DNA of 64,000 bases from a virus (Duplodnaviria > Heunggongvirae > Uroviricota > Caudoviricetes): IMG/VR virus record IMGVR_UViG_3300028833_002727; one strand, written 5' to 3'. The position numbers and the translations under genes were made by a program. The notes below the pieces were generated by a model, which searched no databases, had not been told where the DNA came from, and saw nothing but the letters and a program-made list of their open reading frames with translations. Positions 6,013 through 26,738 of the stretch are shown one piece after another (the first letter of the stretch is position 1; each line of letters opens with the position of its first letter).

Positions 6013-6197
6013 AACCACTTTGTTTTAACGTTTCATGGTGCAAAGGTACAAAAAATAATTCAAACTACCAAATAATTCTTCAAAAAAATGCAAAAAAACG
6101 CTATTTTGTAAAGTCCAGTTAGCAAAATGAAAAAAAGTGTGATTTTTATTTGGTTATTTGAAAAAAAAGTGTATTTTACAATATATCACGCTAAGCA

Positions 6198-6236
6198 CAA
6201 AAAAAATAGCGCCTATTCTCACGAACTGACGCTACC
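6198..6236 (-). terminator. intrinsic terminator
   Basis: TAGCGTC...GGCGCTA hairpin plus T-run on minus strand; near-copy at ~17085. Confidence 0.7.
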
Positions 6237-6371
6237 ACTTTATTATTTAACACTTTGTGATTATGGTTTTAATTGATTTTCTCTACAGGAACTTCCTCGT
6301 TGTTTACACCTTACAAAATAGATGTTACAACAATACGATGAAATTATTCGTCCACGCTGATATGTATCTGT

Positions 6372-6626
6372 TTACACCTCTAAGTTGTCGAGGTTATCCT
6401 GCTTAGGAACTTCCGTTTTCGGCTCATCTTTATCCCACACTTGGATGAAGTTGTAGGCGATACACACGATTGCGGTTACTAAACCCTGCACAATCATGTA
6501 TAATGCGCACAATTCAACGTTTTTGTCGGAGGTTTTGAGCAGGTGGAGGTATAAACCACCCAACATACCCATTACACTCAGTAAGCCGATACATGTGGCT
6601 ATAAAAATTTTAGTTATTGTTTTCAT
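6372..6626 (-). CDS. small two-TM membrane protein
   Basis: Two hydrophobic stretches; start MKTITK. Confidence 0.65.
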   Translation of the reverse strand: MKTITKIFIATCIGLLSVMGMLGGLYLHLLKTSDKNVELCALYMIVQGLVTAIVCIAYNFIQVWDKDEPKTEVPKQDNLDNLEV

Positions 6627-6642
6627 TGCTTTTTCCTTTCTT

Positions 6643-6831
6643 TTAGATTTCCCAACCGATTTCACTGACTCGGTTTCCGTCTTCATCTTCGATTGTGTAA
6701 CCTCGCATTTGGTCTATATCCACAATCTTAACTCTACTTCCGCGTGTCATTTTACCGAGAAGATTTTCGTGAATTCTTTTTGTTGTTACCCAATCTCCAA
6801 TTTTGGGTGTGTTGTTCTTAATAAAAGCCAT
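6643..6831 (-). CDS. small SH3/KOW-like protein
   Basis: PKIGDWV...RVKIVDI. Confidence 0.6.
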   Translation of the reverse strand: MAFIKNNTPKIGDWVTTKRIHENLLGKMTRGSRVKIVDIDQMRGYTIEDEDGNRVSEIGWEI

Positions 6832-6849
6832 ATTCGCTGCTCCTTTCTT

Positions 6850-7389
6850 TTAGAGTTTTACATCAACCTCATGGATTTCGTACTTAACGAACGAATTGTA
6901 GCCGCTATCATGTACTACACCTTTGTCGAAATCAATCGTGATTTCGTCTTCGGTAAAGCGATCCAGCAAATCAGCCTTTTCACGTTTTAACGATTCGTGA
7001 AGATATATCTCTGCTTGCTCCCTCGTGGGGAATACATTCGGACAAATACCTGCACACGTTTCGTTTCCGCTTGTTTCGGAAATCCAATTGATTGCGAACA
7101 TCGTTTTCGGTACGCTAACCGATGAGTTACCTTTTTCAATGACACGCATGTTACCTACTACGCGCTCAATCGTGTAGAAATTGTACACCTCATGTCCCTC
7201 GCTTGCAAGGAAATCCTCTACGTAGATTGTGGTAGGCAGATTTTGCCCTACACGTACACGGACGAGTTTTCCTGCGTTATTTTCTTCTTTTGCTACTACA
7301 TCGCCTACTACTTTTTCAGCGTGTTGATTGTCAAGGAGAATAAGAATATCTCCGACTTGCAAATCATTGTACGATACTTTGTGTTTCAT
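6850..7389 (-). CDS. two-domain early protein (SH3-like plus FxTxEEA-like)
   Basis: N-half similar to 16460 ORF; C-half VFPTREQAE. Confidence 0.7.
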   Translation of the reverse strand: MKHKVSYNDLQVGDILILLDNQHAEKVVGDVVAKEENNAGKLVRVRVGQNLPTTIYVEDFLASEGHEVYNFYTIERVVGNMRVIEKGNSSVSVPKTMFAINWISETSGNETCAGICPNVFPTREQAEIYLHESLKREKADLLDRFTEDEITIDFDKGVVHDSGYNSFVKYEIHEVDVKL

Positions 7390-7484
7390 AATCACTAATG
7401 TTTTTTGTTAAATCTGCTGCAAAGGTACAACAAATTTTTCAATTAACCAAATTTTTTCGCAAAAAAATGCAAAAAAAGTTAATT

Positions 7485-8195
7485 TTATTCCATTTTAGCC
7501 TTTAAGTCAGCCAAGACTTCCAAATCACCCAGTTTTTGCTTGTCCCCCTTGTACAAAGGATAGGACATGCAAATTCGGTATAAATCGGCTGGCAGGAAGT
7601 ACTGACTACGCGTATCGTTCTCATCTTCGGGTTTGATGTGCTCGATGAAGTCCGGCATTTCTTGGCTATACTTCGCAGCCATACTTGTGCGGCGCGCATT
7701 TGCATACATTGCATTTGCGTATCTGTCGCAAAGTTTGATACACGGAGCGTACGGAGTTTCACGGATGCCGCGATAGTACTTCTCATTCGCACGCTCTGCA
7801 CGCGTTTTGCCTTTCTCATTAGTGAGTGCGTACACGATGTCGGCTGCAAGTTCGGCTTGTGCCTGGCCCATGTATTCTTTCGCAATTTTCACTACATCGT
7901 TGTAGGTTAAGCGGCAATCTTCAATCGTATCGTGGAAGATAGAACCAAAGATAGCAGCCAAGCCGTCAGATTCGATTGCGTTCTCATACTCGGCTATGTT
8001 GATGAAACACTCAGCAGCGAACTGCATAAATGTGTTCGATACCATATTGGTGTGGAAACTATACGGAAGTTCATCGTACTTTTGGTTTACACTTGCATGT
8101 ACCAAAGCCGCTTGTTTCTGCATGTTACCGATTGTTTCTTTATTCTCGCAAAGGAACTTATCCCAAGCCTTTTGCACTAATTCCTGCTTTTCCAT
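7485..8195 (-). CDS. HD-domain hydrolase, RelA/SpoT/Mesh1-like
   Basis: HASVNQKY..PYSFH, FHDTIED, IKLCDRYAN motifs. Confidence 0.85.
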   Translation of the reverse strand: MEKQELVQKAWDKFLCENKETIGNMQKQAALVHASVNQKYDELPYSFHTNMVSNTFMQFAAECFINIAEYENAIESDGLAAIFGSIFHDTIEDCRLTYNDVVKIAKEYMGQAQAELAADIVYALTNEKGKTRAERANEKYYRGIRETPYAPCIKLCDRYANAMYANARRTSMAAKYSQEMPDFIEHIKPEDENDTRSQYFLPADLYRICMSYPLYKGDKQKLGDLEVLADLKAKME

Positions 8196-8207
8196 AATGT
8201 TCAATTT

Positions 8208-8594
8208 TTACAAATTGTCTTTAAAGTTAGTTTTTCGCCATGCCAGCGTGAGTTCAAACCGATAGTAGTTTTCATCGTTGCGCGGCAGATAGAACGGATA
8301 GTTGTGCCCTCTCTCAAACACATTGTGCTCGTAGCACACTTCTTCACCGACTTGTTTGCTGATACGCGGCGCAATCTTGTATATGCTGTCGCCATGCTCT
8401 TCGGTTTCACCATTTCCGTTTTCGCTCATATCAAGCGTAACAATGGTGTCTTCGTCAATGATTCCGTCTTCATCTTTTCCGTTGATGAGAAGTATTTTGC
8501 CGAAACCGAATAAGTCCGGTTCACGATAATTGCAGTTGAATACGCGTTCGCCAATCTTAAAATGGCGATGTTTCATTTTCATCTTTTTAGCCAT
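8208..8594 (-). CDS. hypothetical phage protein
   Basis: Co-oriented ORF. Confidence 0.7.
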   Translation of the reverse strand: MAKKMKMKHRHFKIGERVFNCNYREPDLFGFGKILLINGKDEDGIIDEDTIVTLDMSENGNGETEEHGDSIYKIAPRISKQVGEEVCYEHNVFERGHNYPFYLPRNDENYYRFELTLAWRKTNFKDNL

Positions 8595-8605
8595 AATCGT
8601 GTTAT

Positions 8606-9004
8606 TTAGAAATTTAACTTGGAAACTACCATATCGTTTACAATGTGCTCAACGATAAATTGTCCATAGGTTTTGTTTGTAATACTTTTCTTTAGCTTAA
8701 TAAAGTCAAGCATTTCTTTTTCGGTTTCCACCCATTCCTCATATCCGTCATACCAATGCCCAATCGTTTTGTAACGAACAACTTCACCAAATGCCCACTT
8801 ATCGGGTATATCTTTTGTACCCAACAAGGAATAACGAATGTGAAAACCGTCATTGATTCGCGCTCTCGTTATTTGTCCTATACATCCTTTCGGGTACGTA
8901 CGTAAGAACGCTATTCGTGTTCTACAATCATTGAGATTTGGGAAAGCCTCTTTGATTTCTTTGTTTCTACCCAAGTCGGTATAAGTTATTTTGTACATTG
9001 CCAT
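8606..9004 (-). CDS. hypothetical phage protein
   Basis: First gene after promoter ~9030. Confidence 0.7.
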   Translation of the reverse strand: MAMYKITYTDLGRNKEIKEAFPNLNDCRTRIAFLRTYPKGCIGQITRARINDGFHIRYSLLGTKDIPDKWAFGEVVRYKTIGHWYDGYEEWVETEKEMLDFIKLKKSITNKTYGQFIVEHIVNDMVVSKLNF

Positions 9005-9123
9005 AGTCGTAGTGTTTTTAATTTGACACTGCAAAAGTACTGCTTTTTTTTCAATCTACCAAATAATTTGATAGAAAAATGCAAATAAAGTGTATTTTGT
9101 AAAGTCGAGTTAGCAAAACGCTA

Positions 9124-9561
9124 TCAGTCCAACGAAATTTCGATTGAGTTAGACGCTTGTGGTGTGATACGTATTCTACCATTGCAACTGCGTAGAACTA
9201 ACGTTGTTCCATCGTCATCAAGCGAGAACGAATAACCCCACTTGTAGAAATGTGCTGAATCTCTTCTATCGAAAGCTGTTAAGTTCAACAGCGCATCACA
9301 TTCGCGCATAACTTGTTCACCATCGCGTTCGATTTTGAAATCATCTGGTGTAGGTGAGGTGCGGTAGTTTCGATAATCGCTATCAAATTCATTAACGCCC
9401 AAAAGGTTTTGGTTCAGTAAGACAAGACAATAGCGTTCATCGCTATAAGCCAAATAATCGTGAACCGACATTTTTGCCCTACTCGCTTTCGCAACAAGGC
9501 TATTTTGTACTTTCTTGCTTAACATGGAAAGCAAACCTTTATATTCAATGTCATTTAGCAT
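9124..9561 (-). CDS. hypothetical phage protein
   Basis: Co-oriented ORF. Confidence 0.7.
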   Translation of the reverse strand: MLNDIEYKGLLSMLSKKVQNSLVAKASRAKMSVHDYLAYSDERYCLVLLNQNLLGVNEFDSDYRNYRTSPTPDDFKIERDGEQVMRECDALLNLTAFDRRDSAHFYKWGYSFSLDDDGTTLVLRSCNGRIRITPQASNSIEISLD

Positions 9562-9595
9562 AATTGTATTGGTTTTATTGGTTATACATTTTTTT

Positions 9596-9613
9596 GGTAC
9601 TCAATCGAGGATA
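9596..9613. repeat. 18-bp motif B, copy 3
   Basis: GGTACTCAATCGAGGATA. Confidence 0.85.
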
Positions 9614-9617
9614 TAGG

Positions 9618-10319
9618 TTAGATTGTCATAACCTTTTCGTTCCTACCCGTAGGTGTGGAGATTGTAACGCGTGGGTACACATGCTTTCTTCCGTAACGCT
9701 CGTACTCGTAATCACCATTGTCCACCCACTCATGTGTGTCAAGTATGGCAACCACTTTGTTACCACTCTTGTAGGTGTCTTTGATTTGTTTCATCAAACG
9801 TGCGCATGATATTTCGTCACCTGCCAAGTAAGTGAAATTGCTATATGATTTGTCGCTGCGCTTTTGGCACACATCGCACACATACATGTCGGTGATACCC
9901 AACGTGAATTTTGCTTTCTTCTGCAACCACTTTTGCAGTTCGATGAAAGACTTGCAGGGAGTAATCTTCACGATACCCATGACACACTCCAACTCTGCGT
10001 ATTTGTCGCAATGCCAAACGTAGTCAGTACCGCAAACAATATCTCGTTTCTCACGGATATATACGATATTATCCTTACGCAGTTTCTCTTCAAGCGCAGC
10101 GAATTGTTTCTGCAATGCTTGTGCGAACGAAAACAATGTTTTGAACTCGCCATTGTCTTGGATGCGCTTACCGCCAATCTCTACCCAATAATACTTGTGG
10201 ATGTGTTGGCGATGTCCGTTTACAATGTTGCCCATTGTTGTACACTCACCATAGTTAATGTTTGCTTGGTGATAGTTTGCTACTGCATCAAGAATGTCTT
10301 TTACTTTAATTTCTTCCAT
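9618..10319 (-). CDS. hypothetical phage protein
   Basis: 233-aa ORF after promoter ~10349. Confidence 0.75.
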   Translation of the reverse strand: MEEIKVKDILDAVANYHQANINYGECTTMGNIVNGHRQHIHKYYWVEIGGKRIQDNGEFKTLFSFAQALQKQFAALEEKLRKDNIVYIREKRDIVCGTDYVWHCDKYAELECVMGIVKITPCKSFIELQKWLQKKAKFTLGITDMYVCDVCQKRSDKSYSNFTYLAGDEISCARLMKQIKDTYKSGNKVVAILDTHEWVDNGDYEYERYGRKHVYPRVTISTPTGRNEKVMTI

Positions 10320-10556
10320 AATCGTTGGTGTTATTTGTTAAATCTGCTGCAAAGGTACAAAAATTATTTCAAATAACCAAATAATTTGCCTACAAAATTA
10401 CAAGAAATATCAAATTGCGAAATCCACTTTACAAAATGGGGTAATTGCTGACTATTATAAAATATACTTTTTTTTCAAACTACCAAATTTTTTGATGAAA
10501 AAATAACAAAAAAAACACCTACCATTTGGTAAGTGCTTTTTTAATGAGTAAGCAGG

Positions 10557-10844
10557 TTACACTTCGATGTCGCGGATTCTCCACCACTCATCAAGCGTTT
10601 CCATTTCGCCATACGTGCAATTAGCGTAACGTTCGGAGCAGGTGAAATAAAACTTGTTTTCCAAATCATCTTGCGTAATGTCGTTACCCTCATTTTCCTT
10701 TTCTTGTTCAATGTAGGTTTGACATGCAGCGTTGTACTGCTTACGCATCTCACATTGTGCGCTTTCTAACGTGTCGAACACTTGCGCGTCCTCTACGTTG
10801 CGTGGGTAATCATCGTTACCTTTGAAAAGTAAGTACTTTTTCAT
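10557..10844 (-). CDS. acidic early protein, FxTxEEA-like paralog family
   Basis: QVFDTLESAQCEM. Confidence 0.75.
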   Translation of the reverse strand: MKKYLLFKGNDDYPRNVEDAQVFDTLESAQCEMRKQYNAACQTYIEQEKENEGNDITQDDLENKFYFTCSERYANCTYGEMETLDEWWRIRDIEV

Positions 10845-11035
10845 TCCTCCCCCCTTTCTTCACGCACGATTGCGTTGTATTCGTCCAACTTCTTGCAGAC
10901 TTCTTCGTAAGATGTGGCGCGGACTTGTTCCATATCTCCGTCAGGACCATCTACACCCCAATAGAACCCTACATAATCGTTTTCTCCGTACTTGATGATT
11001 TTATCACCATTGTACTCCAATTCTTCCGGTTTCAT
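10841..11035 (-). CDS. small acidic protein
   Basis: Stop overlaps next start. Confidence 0.65.
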   Translation of the reverse strand: MKPEELEYNGDKIIKYGENDYVGFYWGVDGPDGDMEQVRATSYEEVCKKLDEYNAIVREERGEE

Positions 11036-11036
11036 G

Positions 11037-12005
11037 TTACTTGTTTTTTTGATATTTGACTACAAGTTTGTCCCACTTCGTAGGAACGAAGTTTTTGTTT
11101 GCGTAGCAGTTCTCGCCAAGAACGTCAAATAGACTTTCGCGGAACTCATTATCGTCTTCCGACTTACCGAGTTTTTTTGCCATGAACTCCACAAATTCCT
11201 CTTCCAAGAATATACGAAGTTCCTCGCACATGTCTAACTGCTCCAAATAGGTGGAATAGCAGTAACCCTCTAACTCATCAAAAATTGCGTCCGTGATGTG
11301 ATAGATGAACTTCTCTACAAGTTGGAACGGAGCATATTTGCGGAAAGCAGGGAAGAACCCGAACACGCGCTCCATAACTTGTAAACGTGCGCTATCGTAG
11401 GTAACTACACCGCCCATTTCAATGAGGTGGAAAGTATTGTCCGGCGTGAGCAAAATAAAGTCTTCTCCCTCGTTGGTGTCATCTTCAAACGAAGATTCGG
11501 CTATGTAGCAAATACCCTCACGTTTTGCTATGTTCTGCTCATTGAGATACATGTCGCCATAACCATTATTTTCACCATAGTAGCGAACACCACCTGCGAC
11601 AACCTCACTATGTCCGATGATACACATATCGTCGGTGGCAGGTAACTTTACAAAGGAGATAATGTCAAGCACGCTGAAACCGAAACGATGATTGCGGAAA
11701 TAATAATCTCTATCAGCTTTTGGCTCCGCGTATTTTGCTACCTCGTCTTCGTACTCGAAACGAAAATTATAATCTTCGGGCAAGAAATCAATGTTAGATA
11801 GACAAGGAATGATTTCATTCACATGTGCAACCGCTTGTGTGCCATATATGCACGGCTTTCCGTCTTTGGTGATGAAAATACAATCTTTACCAATCGTGCC
11901 GTTTGCGTTACGAACTAACACATTCACAGCAATAGGTGTGTGCGTGCCATTCTTATCAACAAACTGCTGATATTTGTTAAGTAATTTTTCTTCAATCGCA
12001 TTCAT
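11037..12005 (-). CDS. hypothetical phage protein
   Basis: 322-aa ORF. Confidence 0.8.
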   Translation of the reverse strand: MNAIEEKLLNKYQQFVDKNGTHTPIAVNVLVRNANGTIGKDCIFITKDGKPCIYGTQAVAHVNEIIPCLSNIDFLPEDYNFRFEYEDEVAKYAEPKADRDYYFRNHRFGFSVLDIISFVKLPATDDMCIIGHSEVVAGGVRYYGENNGYGDMYLNEQNIAKREGICYIAESSFEDDTNEGEDFILLTPDNTFHLIEMGGVVTYDSARLQVMERVFGFFPAFRKYAPFQLVEKFIYHITDAIFDELEGYCYSTYLEQLDMCEELRIFLEEEFVEFMAKKLGKSEDDNEFRESLFDVLGENCYANKNFVPTKWDKLVVKYQKNK

Positions 12006-12020
12006 ATTACTTTCCTTTCT

Positions 12021-12227
12021 TTATTTAATTTCACGAAAAAGGCAATACAAAATACCCTCAACAATCTCTTGCGCCGCCTCATCGAGTGATACGGCTTTAT
12101 TACTCATACAACGTATTACATCGTTGGCATCTTCTTCCGTAAGTTCAACGCCAATCATGTTTTCATACTTGTCAGCGACTTCTTTGAGTTTCGCCAATGC
12201 TTGTTGTTTTGTAATGTTTACATTCAT
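12021..12227 (-). CDS. hypothetical phage protein
   Basis: After promoter ~12254. Confidence 0.65.
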   Translation of the reverse strand: MNVNITKQQALAKLKEVADKYENMIGVELTEEDANDVIRCMSNKAVSLDEAAQEIVEGILYCLFREIK

Positions 12228-12304
12228 AATGATATTGTTTTACGATTTCTGCTGCAAAAGTACTGCTATTATTTCAAATAACCAAATTTTTTAGCAGAAA
12301 AGTG

Positions 12305-12670
12305 TTATTTTTCATCATTTTGTAAAGTCCACTTTGCAATTTGCTCTGCAATCTCCAACTTGTGTTCTACACAATCGTATTTTACCGAATTGGTTGGTTG
12401 TGAATACTGAAGATTGTTGGTTGCGAGAATATCAAAGAATGGCCGCCCGTCAATGAATGTGATATGTTTCAATATACCATGATGGGTTAAACCTGCCGTG
12501 TCGAACTTAACGCATATCGGATTGTTCTCATCAAAAGGAATTGAGAACATGAACTCATCTTTTGCGATTGACGCGTCTGCTATTGCTAAACGCAGTAAAG
12601 CGTCAGCCTTGTATTGAGATTGTGCTGCTGTAATTTTCAAAGCAGCAATTTCATCGAGTTTCGTTTCCAT
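12305..12670 (-). CDS. hypothetical phage protein
   Basis: Co-oriented ORF. Confidence 0.7.
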   Translation of the reverse strand: METKLDEIAALKITAAQSQYKADALLRLAIADASIAKDEFMFSIPFDENNPICVKFDTAGLTHHGILKHITFIDGRPFFDILATNNLQYSQPTNSVKYDCVEHKLEIAEQIAKWTLQNDEK

Positions 12671-12692
12671 AATCTATGTGTGGTTAAAAATT

Positions 12693-12710
12693 GGTACTCA
12701 ATCGAGGATA
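12693..12710. repeat. 18-bp motif B, copy 4
   Basis: GGTACTCAATCGAGGATA overlapping stop of the 12698 ORF. Confidence 0.85.
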
Positions 12711-13345
12711 TAGGGTTCAACACCTTTCTTAAACTCATCATCCCATTTCCATAGTTCGATGTTTTTTACGCCACGGCACTGGTAACTCATATCTTGTGCT
12801 TTGCTTATGTCAGCAAAAATGGAGTTGATATTTTCCATTGTGCGTACATATGTATTAACCGCTTTCTCATACTTTTTTATGTATTTATTGAGATTTTTTA
12901 CGGCATCTTCATATGTGGCAAGAACAACGCGGTTATGGTTAATTTTTGCGATAATAGCATTTACACTTTCTTCCGTGAAACGATTGTCTTTTGTACACAT
13001 TGGTATTCCATTTCTTTCGTTGTGGCAGAATGTAATACATGTGAACAAGGTATGACTACAATCGTATTTGTACGTGATTCCCTTTGCGGAAAGTACAATG
13101 TGAATACTTTTCTCATTCGAGTAATCAGATGTTTCAACCTCAAAACTAACAATTTCACTACCGATGATGTTTGTTAGTTTGTTAGTGAATACCTTGTTAA
13201 TTGGCTTACCAATAAAATTGCTTTTAATGGTTTTAGTCATGACAATAAGTACTTGCTCCAAAATATCGTTATACTTGCGCAAGTCTTTCACATAAGCCTT
13301 GAACTTGGCTTTATCTTCACCGAATTTTTCTATAAAAGTACTCAT
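12698..13345 (-). CDS. hypothetical phage protein
   Basis: 215-aa ORF. Confidence 0.75.
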   Translation of the reverse strand: MSTFIEKFGEDKAKFKAYVKDLRKYNDILEQVLIVMTKTIKSNFIGKPINKVFTNKLTNIIGSEIVSFEVETSDYSNEKSIHIVLSAKGITYKYDCSHTLFTCITFCHNERNGIPMCTKDNRFTEESVNAIIAKINHNRVVLATYEDAVKNLNKYIKKYEKAVNTYVRTMENINSIFADISKAQDMSYQCRGVKNIELWKWDDEFKKGVEPYILD

Positions 13346-13350
13346 AGTTT

Positions 13351-13536
13351 TTATTGTTTGTTTAATTTAACTACTGCATATTTAACTCCGTCAGCAAAGG
13401 CTTTACGCACCATGTCTATTGCTTGGTTTCGCAATTCTCTTGCAAATTTATCTTTACAAGTTTTTTCGGTTTCATAGGGATAGTATTCAGCGGCTTTTGC
13501 TGCTATCTCATCCGGCGTAATCATTAACTTTACCAT
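13351..13536 (-). CDS. hypothetical phage protein
   Basis: AFADGVKYA motif; tight packing. Confidence 0.65.
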   Translation of the reverse strand: MVKLMITPDEIAAKAAEYYPYETEKTCKDKFARELRNQAIDMVRKAFADGVKYAVVKLNKQ

Positions 13537-13537
13537 A

Positions 13538-13801
13538 TTATTTACCCTTTTTTAATCGTCCAAATACAAATGTTTCGTATTTGTTTTCTTCGATTGCTTT
13601 TTGAACTTGTTTTTCAAACTCCATTGTCTGCTTGAAAAATCCGGTTCTTTGACAATCCCATACGCCGCTATTTTTCGCGATTAGGTTTATTTGTTGAAGA
13701 TGTTTTTGCAACTCCAATAAATCCTTTTTCCAAAGGTTATTTAATACCCATTGTGAGGTGCGCCTTGAAAATTCGTAGTTTTGTTTTGTCTGCTTTGACA
13801 T
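13538..13801 (-). CDS. hypothetical phage protein
   Basis: After promoter ~13828. Confidence 0.65.
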   Translation of the reverse strand: MSKQTKQNYEFSRRTSQWVLNNLWKKDLLELQKHLQQINLIAKNSGVWDCQRTGFFKQTMEFEKQVQKAIEENKYETFVFGRLKKGK

Positions 13802-14024
13802 AATCTTATCCTTTTTTATTTGACAATGCAAAGGTACAAAAATTATTTCAAACTACCAAATAATTCTTCAAAAAAATGCAATTTAACTGAAAATTGCAAA
13901 GTAGAGATTACAATTTATACTTTTTTGCTTTTTTTATTTGGTTATTTGAAATAAAAGTGTATTTTACAATATATCCAACCATACACAAAAAAAAATAGCA
14001 CCTACTTTCGTAAGTGCCATTCCG

Positions 14025-14258
14025 TTACTTGTACATTTGCTTTACGCGCTCATCGGCTAATTTGATTGCCCGATTTCTGCGTTCTGCGTCCGTCATTGTC
14101 GGAGGGAAAGAACGTTTGTCGATTGTGAATGAATCGCACTCAAATTGTCCGTTTTCATCCTCGTACACTTTGCAGTAGTAACCACCCTTGTTGATACCAT
14201 TGTCAGGTTGTACATCAACGAACTTGGTGCGTCTTGGAGATAATTGAACTCTTAACAT
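14025..14258 (-). CDS. hypothetical phage protein
   Basis: Start MLRVQL just after upstream stop. Confidence 0.55.
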   Translation of the reverse strand: MLRVQLSPRRTKFVDVQPDNGINKGGYYCKVYEDENGQFECDSFTIDKRSFPPTMTDAERRNRAIKLADERVKQMYK

Positions 14259-15901: not shown

Positions 15902-16074
15902 AATCGTGTTAAATTTGAATTTCAGTGCAAAGGTACAAAAATTATTTCAATCTACCAAATAATTCGGTAAAAAAATGAAAAAAAAGTGGAATTTGCTAAC
16001 TCCACTTTACAAAATAGGTGCTTAAAAGCGCGGTGAACATACTTTTTTACCCTTTCAGCGCGGATTTGACACAC

Positions 16075-16898: not shown

Positions 16899-17159
16899 AT
16901 TGTATGCTTTATCAAATCTGCTGCAAAGATAATACATTTATTTCAATCTACCAAATTATTCATCAAAAAAATAACAAAAATGTGCATTTTGCTAACTCCA
17001 TTTTACAATTTACACTTTTTTATCATTTTTATTTGGTTATTTGAAATTTTTTTATATTTTACAATATATGCACAAATGGACCATAAAAAATGACGTCTAT
17101 TCTCACGAACTGACGCCACCACAAAACCATTTTAACCTTTATTATGACAACATTTATTT

Positions 17160-17584: not shown

Positions 17585-17692
17585 AGTTTTTACCTTGTTT
17601 ATCAAATCTGATGCAAAGGTAATACTTTTTTTTCAAATAACCAAAGTTTTTAGCAATTATTTTTCAAAAAAGTGTATTTTGCAAAGTATAGT

Positions 17693-17866
17693 TTACAAAT
17701 TGGTACTCAATCGAGTACCTTTGTGTTTAACTTTGCGGGTGTATTGTTTTTTACTTTTTGACACCGATGAATAGTTGATTGGCTTTCCGTGAGCCGCAAT
17801 TTCATCTTCCCTGCTTTTCTTCCGTGCAGCTTTGAGTGCCAATAATATATCATCAGTCTTTTTCAT
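17693..17866 (-). CDS. 57-aa basic protein (not in ORF track), weakly ArfA-like C-terminus
   Basis: MKKTDDILLALKAARKKSREDEI...SKSKKQYTRKVKHK; start overlaps upstream stop. Confidence 0.6.
   Translation of the reverse strand: MKKTDDILLALKAARKKSREDEIAAHGKPINYSSVSKSKKQYTRKVKHKGTRLSTNL
17702..17719. repeat. 18-bp motif B, copy 5 (perfect 7-bp arms)
   Basis: GGTACTC-AATC-GAGTACC. Confidence 0.85.
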
Positions 17867-18840: not shown

Positions 18841-18870
18841 ATTGTTGATGATTTAATGGTAACTATTTAG

Positions 18871-19047
18871 TTATGCAGCATTACGCGCCAAAATTTCTTT
18901 TGTTGCTTTCTCTACCTGCTCTTGCATAGATTCGCGCTTTACTTGTTCGTGCATTTGCTTACCCTTTTCACTTGGTACGGACAATGCACCTACTGCAAGA
19001 ATTGAAACGATGATTGTTACTAACAATGTAATCTCAAATGTAGTCAT
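18871..19047 (-). CDS. small membrane protein
   Basis: N-terminal TM segment. Confidence 0.6.
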   Translation of the reverse strand: MTTFEITLLVTIIVSILAVGALSVPSEKGKQMHEQVKRESMQEQVEKATKEILARNAA

Positions 19048-19244
19048 ATTTACTCCTTTCGTTAAAACTTTGTGCAAAGGTACAAAAAATAATTCAAACT
19101 ACCAAATTTTTTTGAATAAAAATGCAAAAAACCTGCAAATTGTAAACTCCACTTTACAAAATTCACTTTTTTCGTAAAAAGTTGCTTAATAATTTGCTCA
19201 TGTCAAAAAAAAGTGTATTTTACAATATATGCAGCCGTGCCTAC

Positions 19245-19320
19245 AAAAAAACATGCCGACTTTCACAAGCCGACATGCACGTTAAACCATTAAACCCTTA
19301 TAGAATAGAAAGAAATCAGT
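19245..19320 (-). terminator. terminator plus conserved 3' UTR, duplicated at 20651-20719
   Basis: CATGTCGGCTTG(T/G)GAAAGTCGGCATG plus T-run, preceded by TATAAGGGTTTAATGGTTT in both copies. Confidence 0.8.
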
Positions 19321-19333
19321 TACTCGAAATGTT

Positions 19334-19627
19334 TTATGATTGATATTCTTTTTTCACCGAAAAACAAAGATAAGGTATGCAATCCTGCGGGCACACAAAA
19401 TATGCAAATCGTAACACATCTTCGTGCTGCTTGACAAACTTATCTAACGCTTTTTTGAATACGTTCCTGCGTATATCTACCATTACCTCAATTTCCTTAC
19501 TCCAAATGCTAATTGGACTAATATAAAAGCCGTCGCTCAAATGATACCCACACTTGCGTATGTGACGCTCAAAAACAGGGACGTTGTGAATATCATCAAT
19601 CAGTTTTCTTGCAATGTCTTTTTTCAT
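19334..19627 (-). CDS. hypothetical phage protein
   Basis: Monocistronic unit (promoter ~19654, terminator 19245). Confidence 0.7.
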   Translation of the reverse strand: MKKDIARKLIDDIHNVPVFERHIRKCGYHLSDGFYISPISIWSKEIEVMVDIRRNVFKKALDKFVKQHEDVLRFAYFVCPQDCIPYLCFSVKKEYQS

Positions 19628-19742
19628 ATTGACTTGTTTTTACGTTTGACGCTGCAAAATTACAAAAAATTTTTCAAACTACCAAATTTTTTGATGATAA
19701 AATGTCAATTTTCTTTATTTTGCTAACTCTACTTTACAATTT

Positions 19743-19760
19743 GGTACTCAATCGAGGACA
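19743..19760. repeat. 18-bp motif B, copy 6
   Basis: GGTACTCAATCGAGGACA. Confidence 0.85.
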
Positions 19761-19765
19761 ACCTA

Positions 19766-20437
19766 TTAGTCGTCCTCGCCGAATATCGCATGTGTTGCAT
19801 CTATTGCATAGTAGTAATGCCCATTACCACATCCTTTGTATTCCTCCGAATACCAAGCGCGCATTATATTATTTTTTGCATCAAATCTACACTCTACGCT
19901 ATTGTCATAGCCTTTGTGCCACCGCATACTAAACTCGCCTTTTGTTTCGATAGCGTTTGCAAACATTGGCATAAGGTTAGTTCTGCGCCAAGCGTCATAG
20001 TTGATACTCTTGATGCCTTTTTGTACCGTCCATTTTAGACAATCTACGCCACATTGACGATGATACAAACCGAGTTCCTGAGCTATTGCCTGACTCTCAT
20101 CCCACTCTGCGTGCAAGAATTTGCCCAGACGCTCATCGTCTAATTGAGCAACAATTTTGAAGTCATGCAAAAAGTTACTCCACAAACCGCTTTTCTCCAA
20201 TGTAGCAATCACCTTTTTGATGAAACTACGTGTTTTTTTGAGCAAATCTTGCTCCTTGTTGAGCGGTTCGATATTGACTACACCGGTCGAATCGAAATAG
20301 TGCCCATATTTGCGGCTGCGTTTGTTAAACTCGCAAAGGTTGCCCTCGCGCGAAAAGAATAAACGTGCTACGCGTTTGTGTCCGTCAGCGTACGTAATTA
20401 CATGTTCGTACTGCGTTGTTGAAATGTTTTGTGCCAT
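19766..20437 (-). CDS. conserved hypothetical phage protein
   Basis: 223-aa ORF; AWYSEEYKGCGNGHYY. Confidence 0.8.
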   Translation of the reverse strand: MAQNISTTQYEHVITYADGHKRVARLFFSREGNLCEFNKRSRKYGHYFDSTGVVNIEPLNKEQDLLKKTRSFIKKVIATLEKSGLWSNFLHDFKIVAQLDDERLGKFLHAEWDESQAIAQELGLYHRQCGVDCLKWTVQKGIKSINYDAWRRTNLMPMFANAIETKGEFSMRWHKGYDNSVECRFDAKNNIMRAWYSEEYKGCGNGHYYYAIDATHAIFGEDD

Positions 20438-20723
20438 AGTGATTTTCCTTTCTTTTATAGGGTTCTCTTAAAAAACTATGCAAAGGTACAAAAAAAATCT
20501 GACATACGCAAGTTTTTTGACAAAAAAACACAAAAAAAGTGTATTTTGCTAACTACACTTTACAAAATGAAGTTTTTTTGAAAATAATCACTCGGATCCT
20601 TGCATATTCCAAAAAAAAGTGTATTTTACAATATATGCGTCCGTGTACATAAAAAAAACATGCCGACTTTCCCAAGCCGACATGCCGTCAAACCATTAAA
20701 CCCTTATAGAAAGAAATCTTTGT

Positions 20724-21245
20724 TTACCCACGTAAAATATCTTTGTCCGTAAATTTGTGCGAAAAGATATTGCTATTCCATATATGCTCTAACATATCGT
20801 ATTCGCTTACGTTGTAATCACATTTGCGTTCCCACGCGTCTGCGTGACGTACACCTGCCGCGTTTACCGCTTTCAGTTCCATGTGATGAGTTCCGTCATG
20901 GTGACTTGCAGTTACTTTGATAGTACCCTCATCACTACTTTCGATAGTGATATATTCACAATCTTTTACTATTGCTGCAATGGCGTCCCTTACATCGTTA
21001 AACATCTTTGCACCATTGCGGTTGCCCATCCAAGTGCCAATCGTTCCGTATGCGATACATTTGCGCCCTGCAAACAAGTTTTTCAGTTCTTGCAGACAAT
21101 CGTCCCAATTAGCACGTTCTATCTCCGAAAGTTCGTTCCATACCTGCTCGTCAGTTACTGCGCCACCGCAAGCATCTTCCAAGTAAGCCTTTGTTTCATT
21201 AAAGTTTTCACTTACGTTAGTGTTGTCAAAATAGGTTTTTTTCAT
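20724..21245 (-). CDS. hypothetical phage protein
   Basis: Monocistronic unit. Confidence 0.8.
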   Translation of the reverse strand: MKKTYFDNTNVSENFNETKAYLEDACGGAVTDEQVWNELSEIERANWDDCLQELKNLFAGRKCIAYGTIGTWMGNRNGAKMFNDVRDAIAAIVKDCEYITIESSDEGTIKVTASHHDGTHHMELKAVNAAGVRHADAWERKCDYNVSEYDMLEHIWNSNIFSHKFTDKDILRG

Positions 21246-21430
21246 AATCGTTTATTTTCTAAATCTGATGCAAAGGTACAACTTTTTTTTCATTCTACCA
21301 AATAATTTGATAAGAAAATGTAAATTATTGCAATTTTGCAAACTCTACTTTACAAAATAAAGTTTTTCGTACGATTTATTTGCACATTCCAAATAAAAGT
21401 GTATTTTACAATATATGACGGCCGCGACAC

Positions 21431-21856
21431 AAAAAAGGACGCACTCCTTAGACGTTTGGGGGACTGCACTACTCTATACCTATCCAAACTTTGTCTAATT
21501 TGTGCGTCTAAAACGCGGGACTGCGATACGTCATTGACTGCGCTAAATATTCCGCGTTTTAATTCGGTAATGATATGTTTTAATGTAATGTATTCTAATA
21601 TGCCTACGTTTACGTGTCGGCTCTTATGCGTCTATGTCTCATACACTTGCGCTGTTTTGTGCCCACTCATTTGGGCGGTTCTACATACGATATATAAGAT
21701 TTTTCAAGTTCCGTTCTACATTGCCTTATTAGGGCGGAGGTTTATTTTTCCTCATAGTCTTGTTAAATTTGAAATTAAACAATCACTCTTTCCTTGTGCG
21801 GATCCGTGCCGCTTGTTTTTACCACATAATCTTCATATTTTCTCCTTTCTTTTATT
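21431..21856 (-). ncRNA. candidate structured non-coding RNA (~420 nt)
   Basis: Own host promoter (~21864) and terminal hairpin plus T-run; no credible ORF; AAAACGCGG/CCGCGTTTT and GACGCAC/GTGCGTC stems. Confidence 0.5.
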
Positions 21857-21923
21857 TGACACTGCAAAGGTACAACTTTTTTTTCAAATAACCAAATTTT
21901 TTGAGAAAAAAATGCAAAAAATT

Positions 21924-22118
21924 TTAATTTGCCGCTTTTAGTTGTTCCTCTGCTACTTTGTAGCACTCATCAAAATAATCTTCATCATCATACTTTTCGG
22001 TATCTTCAAAGATTTTTTGCAAATGCTCTTTATTTTCCTTTGTATATGGAAAGTTATTGAGCAAATCTTCGGGTGTCATGTCGTAAAGATTCGACAATGT
22101 GATTTTTTTCTTTGCCAT
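21924..22118 (-). CDS. small acidic protein
   Basis: Co-oriented ORF. Confidence 0.6.
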   Translation of the reverse strand: MAKKKITLSNLYDMTPEDLLNNFPYTKENKEHLQKIFEDTEKYDDEDYFDECYKVAEEQLKAAN

Positions 22119-22130
22119 AGTCAAATCTCC

Positions 22131-22382
22131 TTATAAGCACACCGCAAGATTCTCTACCGCTTTTCTACCCTCATCGGTGTGCATCTTGTATTGGAAAGAT
22201 TCTTCACGCAATAATGCACCGATAATAATCTTCGGCAACTCATAATCGTCACCATAAGCGGTAATGTCAATCGCACCGCTATTAAACGCGCGTGCAATGT
22301 TTTTACGCATGTGTTGTGCGCTTTCTCTAATCAGTTGGCGCGTCTTACGCTCAATCTCTTTTTTAAGTTGTTTCTCTGTCAT
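22131..22382 (-). CDS. hypothetical phage protein
   Basis: After promoter ~22410. Confidence 0.7.
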   Translation of the reverse strand: MTEKQLKKEIERKTRQLIRESAQHMRKNIARAFNSGAIDITAYGDDYELPKIIIGALLREESFQYKMHTDEGRKAVENLAVCL

Positions 22383-22601
22383 AATAACAATGTTTTAACG
22401 TTTCATGGTGCAAAGGTACAAAAAAAATTTGATATAGCCAAATTATATTGAATAAAAATGCAAAAAAAGTGTATTTTGCAAAGTAGAGTTTACAATTTTC
22501 ATTTTTTTGTACGAATTATTTGCACAATTCAAAAAAAAGTGTATTTTACAATATATGAAAATCAACCACAAAAAAAAAGCGACTTGTTCAGTCGCTCTCT
22601 C

Positions 22602-22814
22602 TTACGATAGCACAATCGAATTGCGCAGTTTCCACTCACCGCTTTTTTCGTCACGGAATTGGACATCTTCCCCTTGTCGGAACTCTTTTACCCAAAGTTC
22701 GTGATAGCCGTTGCACTCTTCGTCGTCACTAACAAGGACAATGTAATCCCCTTTGTTTTCTGCGACTGCTCTATTAAGCAGTTCCGCTAATTCTTTTACT
22801 GATACTGGTCGCAT
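22602..22814 (-). CDS. hypothetical phage protein
   Basis: SDDEECNGYH motif. Confidence 0.65.
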   Translation of the reverse strand: MRPVSVKELAELLNRAVAENKGDYIVLVSDDEECNGYHELWVKEFRQGEDVQFRDEKSGEWKLRNSIVLS

Positions 22815-22815
22815 A

Positions 22816-23007
22816 TTATTTCAATTTGATATTAAGTTCAACACCCGACTTGTCATAGTCATTATAATGCACATCTTTTACGCCCTCTAAACTCGGCAGT
22901 TTCATTGCCCAAAGCAATGCCTTGCGAATTATTTTGAATAGGGCGATTCTTCCCTCTTTCGTTTCGATGTGTTTCCAATCCTGGATTGTAATTGTCATTT
23001 TTTCCAT
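22816..23007 (-). CDS. hypothetical phage protein
   Basis: Tight packing. Confidence 0.6.
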   Translation of the reverse strand: MEKMTITIQDWKHIETKEGRIALFKIIRKALLWAMKLPSLEGVKDVHYNDYDKSGVELNIKLK

Positions 23008-23034
23008 ACTTTTTTTTTCCTTTCGTTTATGGGT

Positions 23035-23268
23035 TTATTTTCTTATAAAATGTTCAATCATTGAAGATACCAAAATGTAATGTGTTTTTGTTTGTTTGCA
23101 CATATCTGCGTAAGGGTTCGGATAGTCCAAAGCAAGTTCTTTGTACAAGTCTGGAAGATTCTCCTTAATCAGTTTCACAAGTCGCTTGTAATTGCATTTC
23201 CTTGCGCCTTTCATAAGTTCGTCCCACTTGCGTTTCGATATGTCACAACATCTACACTCTAAATACAT
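23035..23268 (-). CDS. hypothetical phage protein
   Basis: Co-oriented ORF. Confidence 0.65.
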   Translation of the reverse strand: MYLECRCCDISKRKWDELMKGARKCNYKRLVKLIKENLPDLYKELALDYPNPYADMCKQTKTHYILVSSMIEHFIRK

Positions 23269-23290
23269 AATTATACTCCTATTAAAAATT

Positions 23291-23308
23291 GGTACTCAAT
23301 CGAGGACA
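23291..23308. repeat. 18-bp motif B, copy 7
   Basis: GGTACTCAATCGAGGACA. Confidence 0.85.
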
Positions 23309-23317
23309 TAGGCACTA

Positions 23318-23806
23318 TTAAAAGTGCCCATTTGTCCGATACTCGTTCACACTCCACGTTCTTACAATCGCAGGCTCGTCTTCTACACATTTGTTGTAGT
23401 TCGCGCCTACTTTGCGTGAGGTGTATTTCATTCCGCTTTCGTCACGTTCGGTGCTCTCCAAACTGCGCTCATAAATCTCTTCCCACGTTCTACCGCCCTG
23501 CAAAGGTAGTGTTTCGGGTAGTACGTTCGCAAGGACAATTCCTTGCATAGTCTTTACGTGTCCTTTGCTAATCAGTTCACCAAGCAAAGCCTTGTGACAT
23601 CTGCGTTGATATTCCAACTCGTCCACACACCAATCGTCTTGAAAGTATGCAAACACATCGTTGCCTTTAATTACCACATGCAGCGGCCACTCTAACGCTT
23701 TTTTCAGCGTTTCTAACTTGTCACTCTTTGCTGCGCCAATGAATACAAGTGCGCTACCTTTTGCGGTGAGGTGACTTTTTTGTTCGCAATTTCTTTTACG
23801 TGCCAT
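23318..23806 (-). CDS. hypothetical phage protein
   Basis: Start MARKRN after promoter ~23859. Confidence 0.7.
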   Translation of the reverse strand: MARKRNCEQKSHLTAKGSALVFIGAAKSDKLETLKKALEWPLHVVIKGNDVFAYFQDDWCVDELEYQRRCHKALLGELISKGHVKTMQGIVLANVLPETLPLQGGRTWEEIYERSLESTERDESGMKYTSRKVGANYNKCVEDEPAIVRTWSVNEYRTNGHF

Positions 23807-24225
23807 AGTTTTTTTCCTTTCTATTTGAGGGTTAATAATGTTGTTTTCTAAATTCGGTGCAAAGGTACAAAAAATTTTTGACATACGCAAGCTTTTTGGA
23901 AAAAAAATTTCAAAAATCGTCATTTTTTTTAATTTTGCAAAGTCTATGTTACAAAATTCACTTTTTTTGCAAAAAAATCACTAAAAACTTGCACAATCAA
24001 AAAAGTTTTATATTTTAGAATACACGCGCGGACAAGACATAAAAAAAACGGACTATTCCTCAGTCCGTTTAATCACCAAATGCCACACATCGCGTAACAT
24101 TCTTGCATAACGCGCTCCGCGTTATCTTTACTCCTCATTTCTTGTAGTTCTTTTTCGTTCATAGGTGTTGTTCTTTCTTTTGGTTGTTAATAAATAGTTT
24201 GTTTGTCGAATAATAGGAAATGCCC

Positions 24226-24570
24226 TTAAAAGAACATTTCCTTGTATTCGCTGCGTAAATCATCCACAATCTTACGCGCTGCGCGGCAAGTTTTGCCAAT
24301 CATACCAATCGCGTAAATGTAGCGATATTCCACAATGTCTTCCGTGTCCGCACCATATTCGTTGATGCAGCCGTTTATGTGAGCGTTCAACTCATCTTCG
24401 GTAACACTCTCACCCAGACGCTCCAAACCGACTTTAATGTCGTTCTTCACGTTCTCACGCACCCATGCTTGCGCCTCTTCAAGCGTAGCAAAATCTTCGT
24501 GCTCACACTCAAACAAGTTTTCTTCCGTTCCGTAGTAAACGCGCCACGCGTTTTTAATCTTCTTTGCCAT
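24226..24570 (-). CDS. early protein, FxTxEEA-like paralog family
   Basis: EDFATLEEAQAWV. Confidence 0.75.
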   Translation of the reverse strand: MAKKIKNAWRVYYGTEENLFECEHEDFATLEEAQAWVRENVKNDIKVGLERLGESVTEDELNAHINGCINEYGADTEDIVEYRYIYAIGMIGKTCRAARKIVDDLRSEYKEMFF

Positions 24571-24724
24571 AATCGAAATTCCTTTCTTTAAGCGGTTAAT
24601 AATAAGTTCAATTCCACCTCAATGTGAAATCTGATGCAAAGTTACGAATTTTTTTTGATATATGCAAGTTTTTCGGCAACTTTTTTTCAAAATCTTAATA
24701 ATCGGCAATTCTATCTTAAAATTC

Positions 24725-24742
24725 GGTACTCATTCGAGGACA
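24725..24742. repeat. 18-bp motif B, copy 8
   Basis: GGTACTCATTCGAGGACA. Confidence 0.8.
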
Positions 24743-24778
24743 TATACCCAAAGAAAAAGAGCCTTGCGGCTCTCTCCC

Positions 24779-25168
24779 CTAATCGGTAGTTTGTAGGTAG
24801 TAACTGAGATTTTCACCCGTCCACTTTTCCATAACAAGCGCATCCGCTTTCTTCCAAAGTTCATCGTACACGCGTGCAAGTTCCTCATTACCGCGCGCGT
24901 TCTGCTCCCAAATCTTCCAATTGAGGGACATTACAAACTCGGTAAAATATACCTTGTCATTAAACCAACTTTTGACTACGTTGTTGTACGTGTCACGCAC
25001 ACTTGCGGCACCTAACCACTCTGCAAGCGATAAATCGCTAAAAAATGTAGTCTTGCGCGTATAGCCACATTCGGATGCCTGGCGCTCAAATACGCGCTCT
25101 TCGCACGCACCATACATAAACACGTTTGTCACTCCGTTCTTTGCTGCAAATTCTTGTACTTTGTTCAT
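24779..25168 (-). CDS. conserved hypothetical phage protein
   Basis: Monocistronic unit ending YYLQTTD. Confidence 0.8.
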   Translation of the reverse strand: MNKVQEFAAKNGVTNVFMYGACEERVFERQASECGYTRKTTFFSDLSLAEWLGAASVRDTYNNVVKSWFNDKVYFTEFVMSLNWKIWEQNARGNEELARVYDELWKKADALVMEKWTGENLSYYLQTTD

Positions 25169-25425
25169 AGCAATATAATTTTTAAGGGTTCAACATTACT
25201 TTTTCAATTCCGACTGCAAAGGTACAACTTTTTTTTGACATGTGCAAGAAAAATCGTATTTTTTTTCATTCTGCTAACTCTACTTTACAAAATGAAGATT
25301 TTTTGCACTTTTTTTACATAGACTCTTGCACATTTCAAAAAGTTTTATATATTGCAATATACACACATACACACGCGTACATTTGCACATATATACACTC
25401 ATAAATGAGCAGGATAAAAAGTATG

Positions 25426-25529
25426 CCCATTTTTAGCCGTTTTGAGACACTTTTAAGACAAAGGTATATAATTGTCCCATTTTTAGCCGTTTTGAGACAC
25501 TTTTAAGACAAAGGTATATAATTGTCCCA
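25426..25529. repeat. perfect 50-bp tandem duplication
   Basis: CCCATTTTTAGCCGTTTTGAGACACTTTTAAGACAAAGGTATATAATTGT x2. Confidence 0.9.
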
Positions 25530-25676
25530 AATTGTCCTAAATAATCGCTCTAAACAAAAAAACAAAAAAAATTCAAAAAAAATCACCAAACTCTTGCATA
25601 TATCAAAAATTTTTATATTTTGCAATAATTGTACGCATACACACAAAAAAAAAGCGGTATTGCTACCGCCTTTTCG

Positions 25677-26261
25677 CTATGCCGCTTTCGCTACAAGATT
25701 GTTTTTCAATGTTGTGCCGTTTAGAGTAATCTCTAAAATGTTCTCGATTTTCACAACTCGGCAAACAACTTGGTTTTCAGTCAGTCCTGCTGCTGCTTGT
25801 GTTGCGCTCGGCTTTTTCTCGGTGAATTGCTTAATCAAAGCAATTTGCTCGTCAGTCGCAGGCTTGCCGCCTACAAAATACTTGTTCTCAACTTTGCCGT
25901 TCTGCACTCCGTAGTAACGAAGATAAATCGTACCTTTGTGCTCAATGAGTTTGTTTTCTTGCCCTGCTACCCATGCGCCCCAACGCAATGCGGCTGCAAT
26001 AAAATCTATCGGTGCTCCTTGCTCTTTTGCACCGCGATTGTTTACCGCGTTCTCGTACGAATAATTTACTTGGAACTGCCCGCTTGTGAGTTTCTCAATC
26101 GGCAGAATCTCGCCGTTCTTGTTCGTCAATGCGCAAATGGCTGCTTTTTGCGACTTGTTCATGTCAGGCTCGCTGATGTAGGACATGTGAATAAATTGGC
26201 AACCTACCAACGCCTTAATTGCGTTAATCACCGTTTCAACAAAGATAGTGTTCTTTTTCAT
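25677..26261 (-). CDS. conserved hypothetical phage protein, first gene of early block
   Basis: 194-aa ORF with promoter ~26336 and GCGGTA/TACCGC terminator. Confidence 0.8.
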   Translation of the reverse strand: MKKNTIFVETVINAIKALVGCQFIHMSYISEPDMNKSQKAAICALTNKNGEILPIEKLTSGQFQVNYSYENAVNNRGAKEQGAPIDFIAAALRWGAWVAGQENKLIEHKGTIYLRYYGVQNGKVENKYFVGGKPATDEQIALIKQFTEKKPSATQAAAGLTENQVVCRVVKIENILEITLNGTTLKNNLVAKAA

Positions 26262-26738
26262 AACTAAAATGATTTAGTGCGTGTGTCACACGCGGTTAGA
26301 CTTTATGTTTTTGGACTCCCTTAATGAAATCCGGTGCAAAGGTACTGCTTTTTTTTGATATATGCAAATTTTTTTGAAAAAATCGTTCAAAAAAGTGCAT
26401 TTTGCTAACTCTACTTTGCAAAATGAAGATTTTTTGCATTTTTCTTCGTTTTTATTTGCGTATTCCAAAAAGTTTGCTATTTTACAATTTGTGCGCGTAT
26501 ATGCGTTTTTATGTGCCGCCCATTATGGTGAATATATTGTTAATAAACGAAGTTTATCAACGATATTTATATTCACTATAATGTTTGAGCGATAAAAAAC
26601 TCGCAGCAGTACAATTTACCACCTGCACTATTTAATGCGCTCAAATCGCAAATAAATGCCCTTTGTGACGATTTTATATTTAATGTATAAATCAAAAATA
26701 TAGGATATATTTTTATTATTTATACGTTAGATATAACT

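Follow-up and report, generated by a model that had tools for sequence, protein, structure and literature searches.

The 64,000-nucleotide stretch examined here (hereafter the window) is IMG/VR record IMGVR_UViG_3300028833_002727, assigned to a virus of the Caudoviricetes, and its first 29 kb, in which nearly all real genes lie on the minus strand, contain many copies of a 24-bp palindrome set upstream of early promoters. All 16 copies found are intergenic, each preceding a minus-strand ORFan gene. On the gene strand, the cassette built around the palindrome runs from the previous stop codon through a GC hairpin with a T-run, a mirror promoter-like element, an A-run, the 24-mer, a spacer and the −33/−7 boxes to a leader of 25-75 nt and the ATG. 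No PHROG match was found for ten genes behind palindrome promoters, in line with early genes of a plastic region, and no Rfam family was found in the window.

The preliminary description of this locus had listed 15 copies, all of which are present at the centres it gave, but the true count is 16, a copy centred at 12329.5 (12318-12341) having been overlooked. Its pattern, with up to three mismatches allowed, returned 31 strand-matches in the window against 2.96 expected, a number reached by 0 of 100 shuffles (the largest gave 8), and three of the matches, at 13438, 15106 and 30091, look like chance or fall inside coding sequence. The consensus reads TTTTGYAAAsT-NN-AsTTTRCAAAA, with T3 T4 G5, A8, T11, A14, T16 T17 and C20 A21 invariant across the 16 aligned regions. 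A decayed seventeenth copy at about 24700-24723, spotted by eye, is the probable former palindrome of the promoter at 24644.

Measured from the palindrome centre, the first T of the −33 TTG lies 44.5 bp away in 14 of the 16 copies, 54.5 bp at 23933 and 33.5 bp at 25269, as the earlier hand counts of 45, 55 and 34 bp had indicated. Alignment of the 16 regions traces the first exception to 10 bp inserted into the spacer and the second to 11 bp deleted from it. Downstream of the palindrome the core promoter TTG-N20-TAccTTTGCA is invariant, and it matches the −33/−7 consensus of Bacteroidota sigma-A(Bfr) as quoted in PMC7366714. Matches to sigma-70-type promoters are not enriched in the window (63 vs 56). 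The spacer between palindrome and −33 box consists of two phased T-tracts and an A-tract, which we take to resemble the UP element of E. coli.

The window holds 29 promoters with the extended core, 16 with the palindrome and 13 without it. Eight of the latter fall within 1-27 kb (2069, 3294, 5081, 7427, 15079, 18397, 21872 and 24644) and were passed over in the preliminary description, some of them retaining the T-tract spacer right after a stop codon, as at 7427, and five lie beyond 38 kb (38052, 40490, 46232, 50840 and 51887). It was thus correctly noted beforehand that promoters beyond 38 kb lack the palindrome, but these are phage promoters of host type rather than host promoters, and the suggestion that one factor controls the whole module was too strong, eight promoters of the same type inside it having no site. 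As 13 promoters with the same core do without the palindrome, basal promoter activity does not depend on it.

The module recurs in other phages whose surrounding DNA is largely unrelated. A megablast search of the phage collection with 12 kb of the module gave no match. The IMG/VR contig G001 (327,393 bp) has 15 sites with up to two mismatches, all within 48-73 kb (a control pattern gave 0), and every one is in register with a TTG-N20-TAyCTTTG promoter, one copy lying a helical turn closer. A 34-kb stretch of G001 shares a single blastn match of 263 bp with the window, so motif and spacing have been kept while the DNA around them has not. The terminators of G001 abut the palindrome as separate GC hairpins. 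A contig binned into a metagenome-assembled genome (MAG) from horse faeces, probably a phage to judge from its small open reading frame (ORF) cassettes, has the palindrome 13 times at gap 45 and once at gap 34. Over 1-26 kb of the window, rumen contigs of 85-94% identity (loci L143, L155, L133, L175, L137, L192 and L188) have lost or reordered early genes and changed their content, with recurrent junctions relative to the window at 5786, 6840, 8253, 8607, 12006 and 23020-23036. On these sequence comparisons, the module is present in at least three phage lineages.

Metagenomes and bacterial genomes were then scanned for the palindrome followed at 19-49 bp by TTG-N20-TAHYTTTG, the gap being counted from the 20-bp palindrome core to the TTG; all counts from these scans, here and below, are among the matches listed. 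About 300 further sites were obtained from rumen and gut metagenomes and Bacteroidales genomes. In the metagenomes the gap is 34 bp at 75 sites, 35 bp at 18, 23-27 bp at 30 and 43-47 bp at 15, with 6 elsewhere; in bacterial genomes 33 sites fall at 23-28 bp, 62 at 33-36 bp and 42 at 44-47 bp, with 5 elsewhere. Because many sites share descent, these histogram counts are not independent events, and the sites were therefore pooled, stripped of identical contexts and clustered by spacer at 70% identity. Among the resulting 114 clusters, 20 lie at 23-27 bp, 60 at 34-36 bp, 27 at 44-47 bp and 7 elsewhere, so that 107 of 114 occupy 12 of the 31 allowed positions, with a Rayleigh R of 0.79 at a period of 10.5 bp. 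The search was uniform over 19-49 bp, hence the valleys between the peaks are real, and so is the helical phasing, given that three peaks hold 107 of the 114 dereplicated sites. A handful of sites that fall outside this range (3-4, 13-18, 57-58, 69 and 80 bp) roughly extend the series. The conserved spacing proposed from the window alone is thereby borne out in alignment and in relatives, with three peaks about 10.5 bp apart.

What is new here is that the module also precedes host chromosomal genes. In the scan of bacterial genomes it was found at no fewer than 120 loci. The carriers are mostly rumen and gut MAGs of Paludibacteraceae or unnamed Bacteroidales, together with a small number of Prevotella, P. 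amnii DSM 23384 among them. In a set of nine nearly identical contigs from human gut, two exceeding 1 Mb, the palindrome stands at gap 26 before nuoA-nuoB-nuoCD-nuoH. The first downstream gene, tabulated for 92 loci, encodes a 200-residue TetR-family protein at 17, a PepSY-like protein at 10, SusC/RagA at 6 and FtsK at 3, while pckA, GAPDH, dnaX, nuoA and RseC each follow at 2. Among 18 loci with no ORF downstream, 8 (L217, L242, L259, L260, L280, L281, L286 and L303, all from rumen or gut Bacteroidales) carry the gene for the small RNA (sRNA) FopS (RF04319) at the expected place, with the palindrome upstream. The FopS genes of B. thetaiotaomicron have canonical sigma-A(Bfr) promoters together with an unknown regulator noted by the authors (PMC11697453), and the palindrome may be the site of the regulator so proposed.

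At nine loci two divergent promoters share a single palindrome, the gaps being 34 or 35 bp on one side and 24-26 bp on the other, or 45 and 24 bp, and these host pairs share the geometry of the mirror element in the phage. That element is present in ten copies (the five listed in Table 1 and looser versions at five others) on the side facing the upstream terminator, and is not found in G001. Since host genomes have divergent promoter pairs with 24/34 geometry, it could be a weak antisense promoter or a relic of a bidirectional host module.

Five host-like genomes have 2-14 sites each at up to two mismatches, the control pattern giving 0, as against 16 in 20 kb of the phage. The exact motif is rare among Bacteroidales at large, with 5 carriers in an order-wide sample of 151 genomes and 8 in a family sample of 121. 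It belongs to a sub-clade, which points to the host of the phage, most likely a rumen or gut Bacteroidales bacterium of Paludibacteraceae-like affiliation.

The TetR-family protein is the only regulator recurring downstream of the palindrome, and its orthologue occurs in 37 of 46 genomes that have the module at other genes, compared with 2 of 121 in the family sample, an association confounded by phylogeny. It was nevertheless rejected as the binder. At the TetR genes a separate dyad, GGAAACT-N14-AGTTTCC, lies between the 24-mer and the −33 box and is kept at close and distant homologues, following the gene even where the 24-mer is lacking; Prevotella genomes have the 24-mer and no TetR orthologue; and neither the dyad in the window nor a TetR homologue in the window or G001 was found. 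The TetR gene is thus a target rather than the source of the binder, and its dyad, being retained even at distant homologues, is probably an autoregulatory operator. The dyad was seen at loci L199, L210, L224, L231 and others, and at L320, L322 and L323, in Paludibacteraceae-like genomes.

The E. coli TyrR box, to which the preliminary description had likened the palindrome, does have the same half-site letters and N6 centre (TGTAAA-N6-TTTACA against TTG[T/C]AAA-N6-TTT[A/G]CAA), but the likeness ends with the letters. The sites here are single rather than pairs of strong and weak boxes and belong to another phylum, and no protein of TyrR type (ACT-PAS-AAA+-HTH, the last domain being helix-turn-helix) was seen in the five host-like genomes, each of which has one HTH_50/HTH_8 match, a PspF-like AAA+/HTH protein of 401-428 residues with GAFTDA and without ACT and PAS. 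Cur/BT4338, a CRP-like protein of Bacteroides, was likewise discarded, its consensus wwwTATGTTnTAnAACATAwww (PMC6989115) differing from the 24-mer. Dyads of this kind form a separate element in some spacers: a second dyad, TATGYT-N4-AACATA, which matches the Cur/BT4338 consensus, occurs at metagenome loci L091, L101, L108, L115, L122, L129, L118 and L148, at gap-27 and some gap-45 promoters, and some promoters seem to combine the palindrome with a Cur-like site. A divergently encoded regulator was also sought, and the 63 upstream neighbours show no recurring transcription factor family.

With the T of TAnnTTTG taken as about −12 by analogy with sigma-70 promoters (TTG to TA spans 23 bp in both), the site centres would fall near −79.5 in the main class, and at −68.5 to −72.5 and −90 in the others, on this assumed start site. 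The earlier proposal of one dimeric factor, put there at about −78 and here near −78 to −80, is supported by these data, the dyad-symmetric site keeping to a single helical face and the phasing surviving in relatives. A single dyad on one face, with an A/T-tract spacer and service in both directions, argues for a class-I-type activator or an architectural protein. Where that description had left the factor as host, virion-delivered or early, the presence of the module before chromosomal genes in many Bacteroidales genomes narrows the choice in favour of the host. Our preferred reading, held with somewhat more belief than doubt, is that the palindrome is a class-I-type upstream site of a dimeric host factor, borrowed by the phage and activating its immediate-early expression. 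What is observed is the motif, the constancy of its phase, its retention in phages with unrelated flanks and its occurrence at host genes; binding by a protein, a host-encoded binder and class-I-like activation through polymerase contact or bending, as opposed to repression, are what these features suggest. A host dimeric protein would bind the palindrome upstream of sigma-A type host promoters, its site centred about 34, 44.5 or 55 bp from the −33 box (roughly −69, −79.5 or −90 from the presumed start) and so always on the same helix face, one bound site being able to serve two divergent promoters; the phage would have built this host module, with the UP-like A/T spacer, into 16 single-gene early cassettes; and injected DNA, carrying the host module, could attract the RNA polymerase of the host by way of a factor already present in the cell, ahead of the synthesis of any phage protein. 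As ordinary genes of the likely hosts are preceded by the same palindrome in the same helical phase, the phage has most probably copied the binding site of a host regulator.

Several points weigh against this. None of the three candidates tested as binder fits; 13 promoters with the same core lack the palindrome; a promoter at 19-49 bp was a condition of the scans, and many of their matches are kin, so that the counts are not independent, although dereplication left the result unchanged; most of the host genomes are MAGs; and the sequence would allow repression as well as activation. The palindrome might also be read as the operator of a repressor, a host protein or an early or middle phage protein, that shuts off the early cassettes and the matching host genes together. 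T4-type phages usually shut off their early genes in concert, conditionally expressed genes (TetR, FopS, SusC and PepSY-like) are among the host targets, and 13 otherwise identical promoters manage without the site. Yet it lies about 45 bp upstream of the −33 box and never overlaps the core promoter, each promoter has a single site and hence no operator pair for looping, the strict helix-face rule and the sharing by divergent promoters are typical of upstream activators, and no HTH protein common to the phages is linked to the palindrome, all of which makes repression rather unlikely. A phage-borne factor, delivered with the virion or made very early, that recognises the sequence of the host protein or replaces that protein is a more distant prospect still. 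A 628-residue protein with a C-terminal HTH, encoded at 26983-28869 and adjoining the cluster, might be such a factor, but core host genes use the site in many species, so a host binder must exist, and neither the window nor G001 has a homologue of the host TetR linked to the site.

Least probable, to our mind, is a structural or recombinational role for the palindrome, as a hairpin, a cruciform terminator or a homology patch resembling the PeSLs of T4-type phages, its fixed spacing stemming from duplication of whole cassettes. Terminator and early-promoter units do flank ORFans here, as PeSLs do (PMC2839356, PMC4122927), and close relatives have shuffled gene content. Of 58 breakpoints in those relatives (ends of high-scoring segment pairs), 18 nevertheless map to cassette zones, a share not significantly different from the 22% expected, and other junctions lie at plain gene boundaries. 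A hairpin or terminator was rejected on several further grounds: the RNA stems of the 16 copies are weak, at 0 to −5.4 kcal/mol, and three do not fold; the real terminators are separate elements about 100 bp upstream; and spacer indels come only in 10-11 bp steps, in phages and hosts with unrelated flanks. Base pairing within the palindrome tells the same way. Positions 10 and 15, left free in the search, read GG in 56, CC in 48, GC in 38 and CG in only 5 of 214 unique sites, so that about half are non-complementary and one complementary combination is avoided, and positions 6 and 19 in the same sites read C-A in 63, T-G in 62, C-G in 61 and T-A in 28, 58% of them non-Watson-Crick. A hairpin would favour both complementary pairs equally and disfavour GG and CC, which argues for a protein site, and the counts would be explained by a protein with a preference for AAAGT that accepts AAACT in one half-site.

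Among known systems, class I activator sites come closest. CRP acts from −61.5, −71.5, −82.5 and −92.5, and at E. coli rrnB P1 Fis site I (−71) is joined by an UP element. The palindrome resembles these in its dimer dyad upstream of the −35-equivalent, its one-turn steps, its UP-like tract and its divergent sharing, along with the confinement of sites to one helix face that marks class I promoters; it differs in consensus and in polymerase, here that of Bacteroidota sigma-A with −33/−7 boxes, and the activation proposed for it is deduced. IHF at lambda pL and Mu Pe, and phi29 p4 near −82 of PA3, similarly provide phage promoters with an upstream site for a binding or bending protein that aids host polymerase, whereas here one type of site stands at 16 promoters of one module and recurs in a small host regulon as well as in at least three phage lineages. 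The PeSLs of T4-type phages (PMC2839356, PMC4122927) are alike in that units of terminator and early promoter bracket small ORFans in a plastic region whose relatives show gene gain, loss and reordering, but the palindrome is an extra element between terminator and promoter and not the terminator stem-loop. A literature search for upstream palindromes at Bacteroidota promoters yielded only PM2, centred at −10/−30, and the literature searched does not describe the present palindrome. It is a new site of a known kind, unusual in that it occurs both in a small host regulon and in the early modules of several phages of jumbo or large size.

Transcription activation at the −33/−7 promoters of Bacteroidota is little known, and the present case offers a sharply defined 24-bp site with a strict phase rule and natural targets in hosts and phages, so that a simple DNA bait should suffice to isolate its factor. 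Borrowing a host module may be how a T4-like jumbo phage whose host is uncultured secures immediate-early expression, the palindrome would serve as a sequence-based pointer to a Paludibacteraceae-like rumen Bacteroidales host, and the cassette could provide a natural strong-promoter design for Bacteroidales genetics. A bolder extension, possible though doubtful, is that Bacteroidales possess a general upstream activator not described so far, which does for the sigma-A(Bfr) polymerase what Fis or CRP do elsewhere; the 24-mer would define its regulon, and jumbo phages would have captured this site, which also acts as a sink for the factor. If so, replicating phage DNA, with 16 sites against about 5-14 per host genome, would soak up the factor, and its titration would silence the FopS sRNAs, nuo, pckA, gap and the TetR regulator, leaving phage genes on and host genes off.

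The coordinates of the cassette elements are collected in Table 1. The GC-rich hairpin with its T-run is present in about ten copies, and just upstream of the 25269 cassette, at 25420-25520 (minus strand), are two tandem copies of a unit of about 50 bp ending in GGGACAATTATATACCTTTGTCTTAA.

Table 1. Palindrome copies and associated promoter elements in the window, with the distance from palindrome centre to the −33 TTG.
Feature	Position	Strand	Basis	Distance (bp)
Palindrome copy 1, TTTTGCTAA-CTGGAC-TTTACAAAA on gene strand	6104-6127	−	pattern scan	44.5
Palindrome copy 2	9095-9118	−	pattern scan	44.5
Palindrome copy 3, 3 mismatches	10413-10436	−	pattern scan, alignment	44.5
Palindrome copy 4, missed in preliminary description	12318-12341	−	pattern scan	44.5
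Palindrome copy 5, degenerate (AATTGTAAT...)	13892-13915	−	alignment	44.5
Palindrome copy 6	15991-16014	−	pattern scan	44.5
Palindrome copy 7	16987-17010	−	pattern scan	44.5
Palindrome copy 8	17677-17700	−	pattern scan	44.5
Palindrome copy 9	19138-19161	−	pattern scan	44.5
Palindrome copy 10	19718-19741	−	pattern scan	44.5
Palindrome copy 11	20544-20567	−	pattern scan	44.5
Palindrome copy 12	21334-21357	−	pattern scan	44.5
Palindrome copy 13	22474-22497	−	pattern scan	44.5
Palindrome copy 14, one helical turn farther out	23933-23956	−	pattern scan, alignment	54.5
Palindrome copy 15, one helical turn nearer	25269-25292	−	pattern scan, alignment	33.5
Palindrome copy 16	26400-26423	−	pattern scan	44.5
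Decayed copy 17 (probable), ~9 mismatches, standard position of promoter 24644	~24700-24723	−	by eye	
Core promoter example, −33 TTG to −7 TAccTTTG	6041-6071	−	alignment; TTG-N20-TAnnTTTG spacing invariant	
−7 T of further palindrome promoters	9039, 10357, 12262, 13836, 15935, 16931, 17621, 19082	−		
−7 T of remaining palindrome promoters	19662, 20488, 21278, 22418, 23867, 25224, 26344	−		
T-tract/A-tract spacer example, consensus TnCAnTTTTTTTnCATTTTTTTnnnAAAtAA	6072-6103	−	alignment consensus	
Mirror promoter-like element, TTG-N19-TATTTTAC, other side of palindrome	6150-6179	+	TTG 24 bp from palindrome core	
Further mirror elements	13938-13967, 17033-17062, 21380-21409, 22520-22549	+		
GC-rich terminator hairpin with T-run, ~90-110 bp upstream of palindrome	20657-20686	−	terminator scan	
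Further terminators	19251-19278, 13992-14023, 10509-10542, 24046-24070		terminator scan	

Other genes lie elsewhere in the window. A protein with an ART-PolyVal ADP-ribosyltransferase domain (E = 3.2e-7) is encoded on the plus strand at 30556-31458. It recalls T4 Alt, which modifies the alpha subunit of the polymerase and favours early promoters. The phage genome also contains, at 56147-57289 (minus strand), a TnpB/IS605 OrfB gene whose product has a Cas12f-like TNB domain, and the genes at 52213-54327, 57497-60079, 62119-63213 and 48717-49973 (minus strand) encode an InPase-domain protein, ClpB-like and ClpX-like AAA+ proteins and a nicotinate phosphoribosyltransferase.

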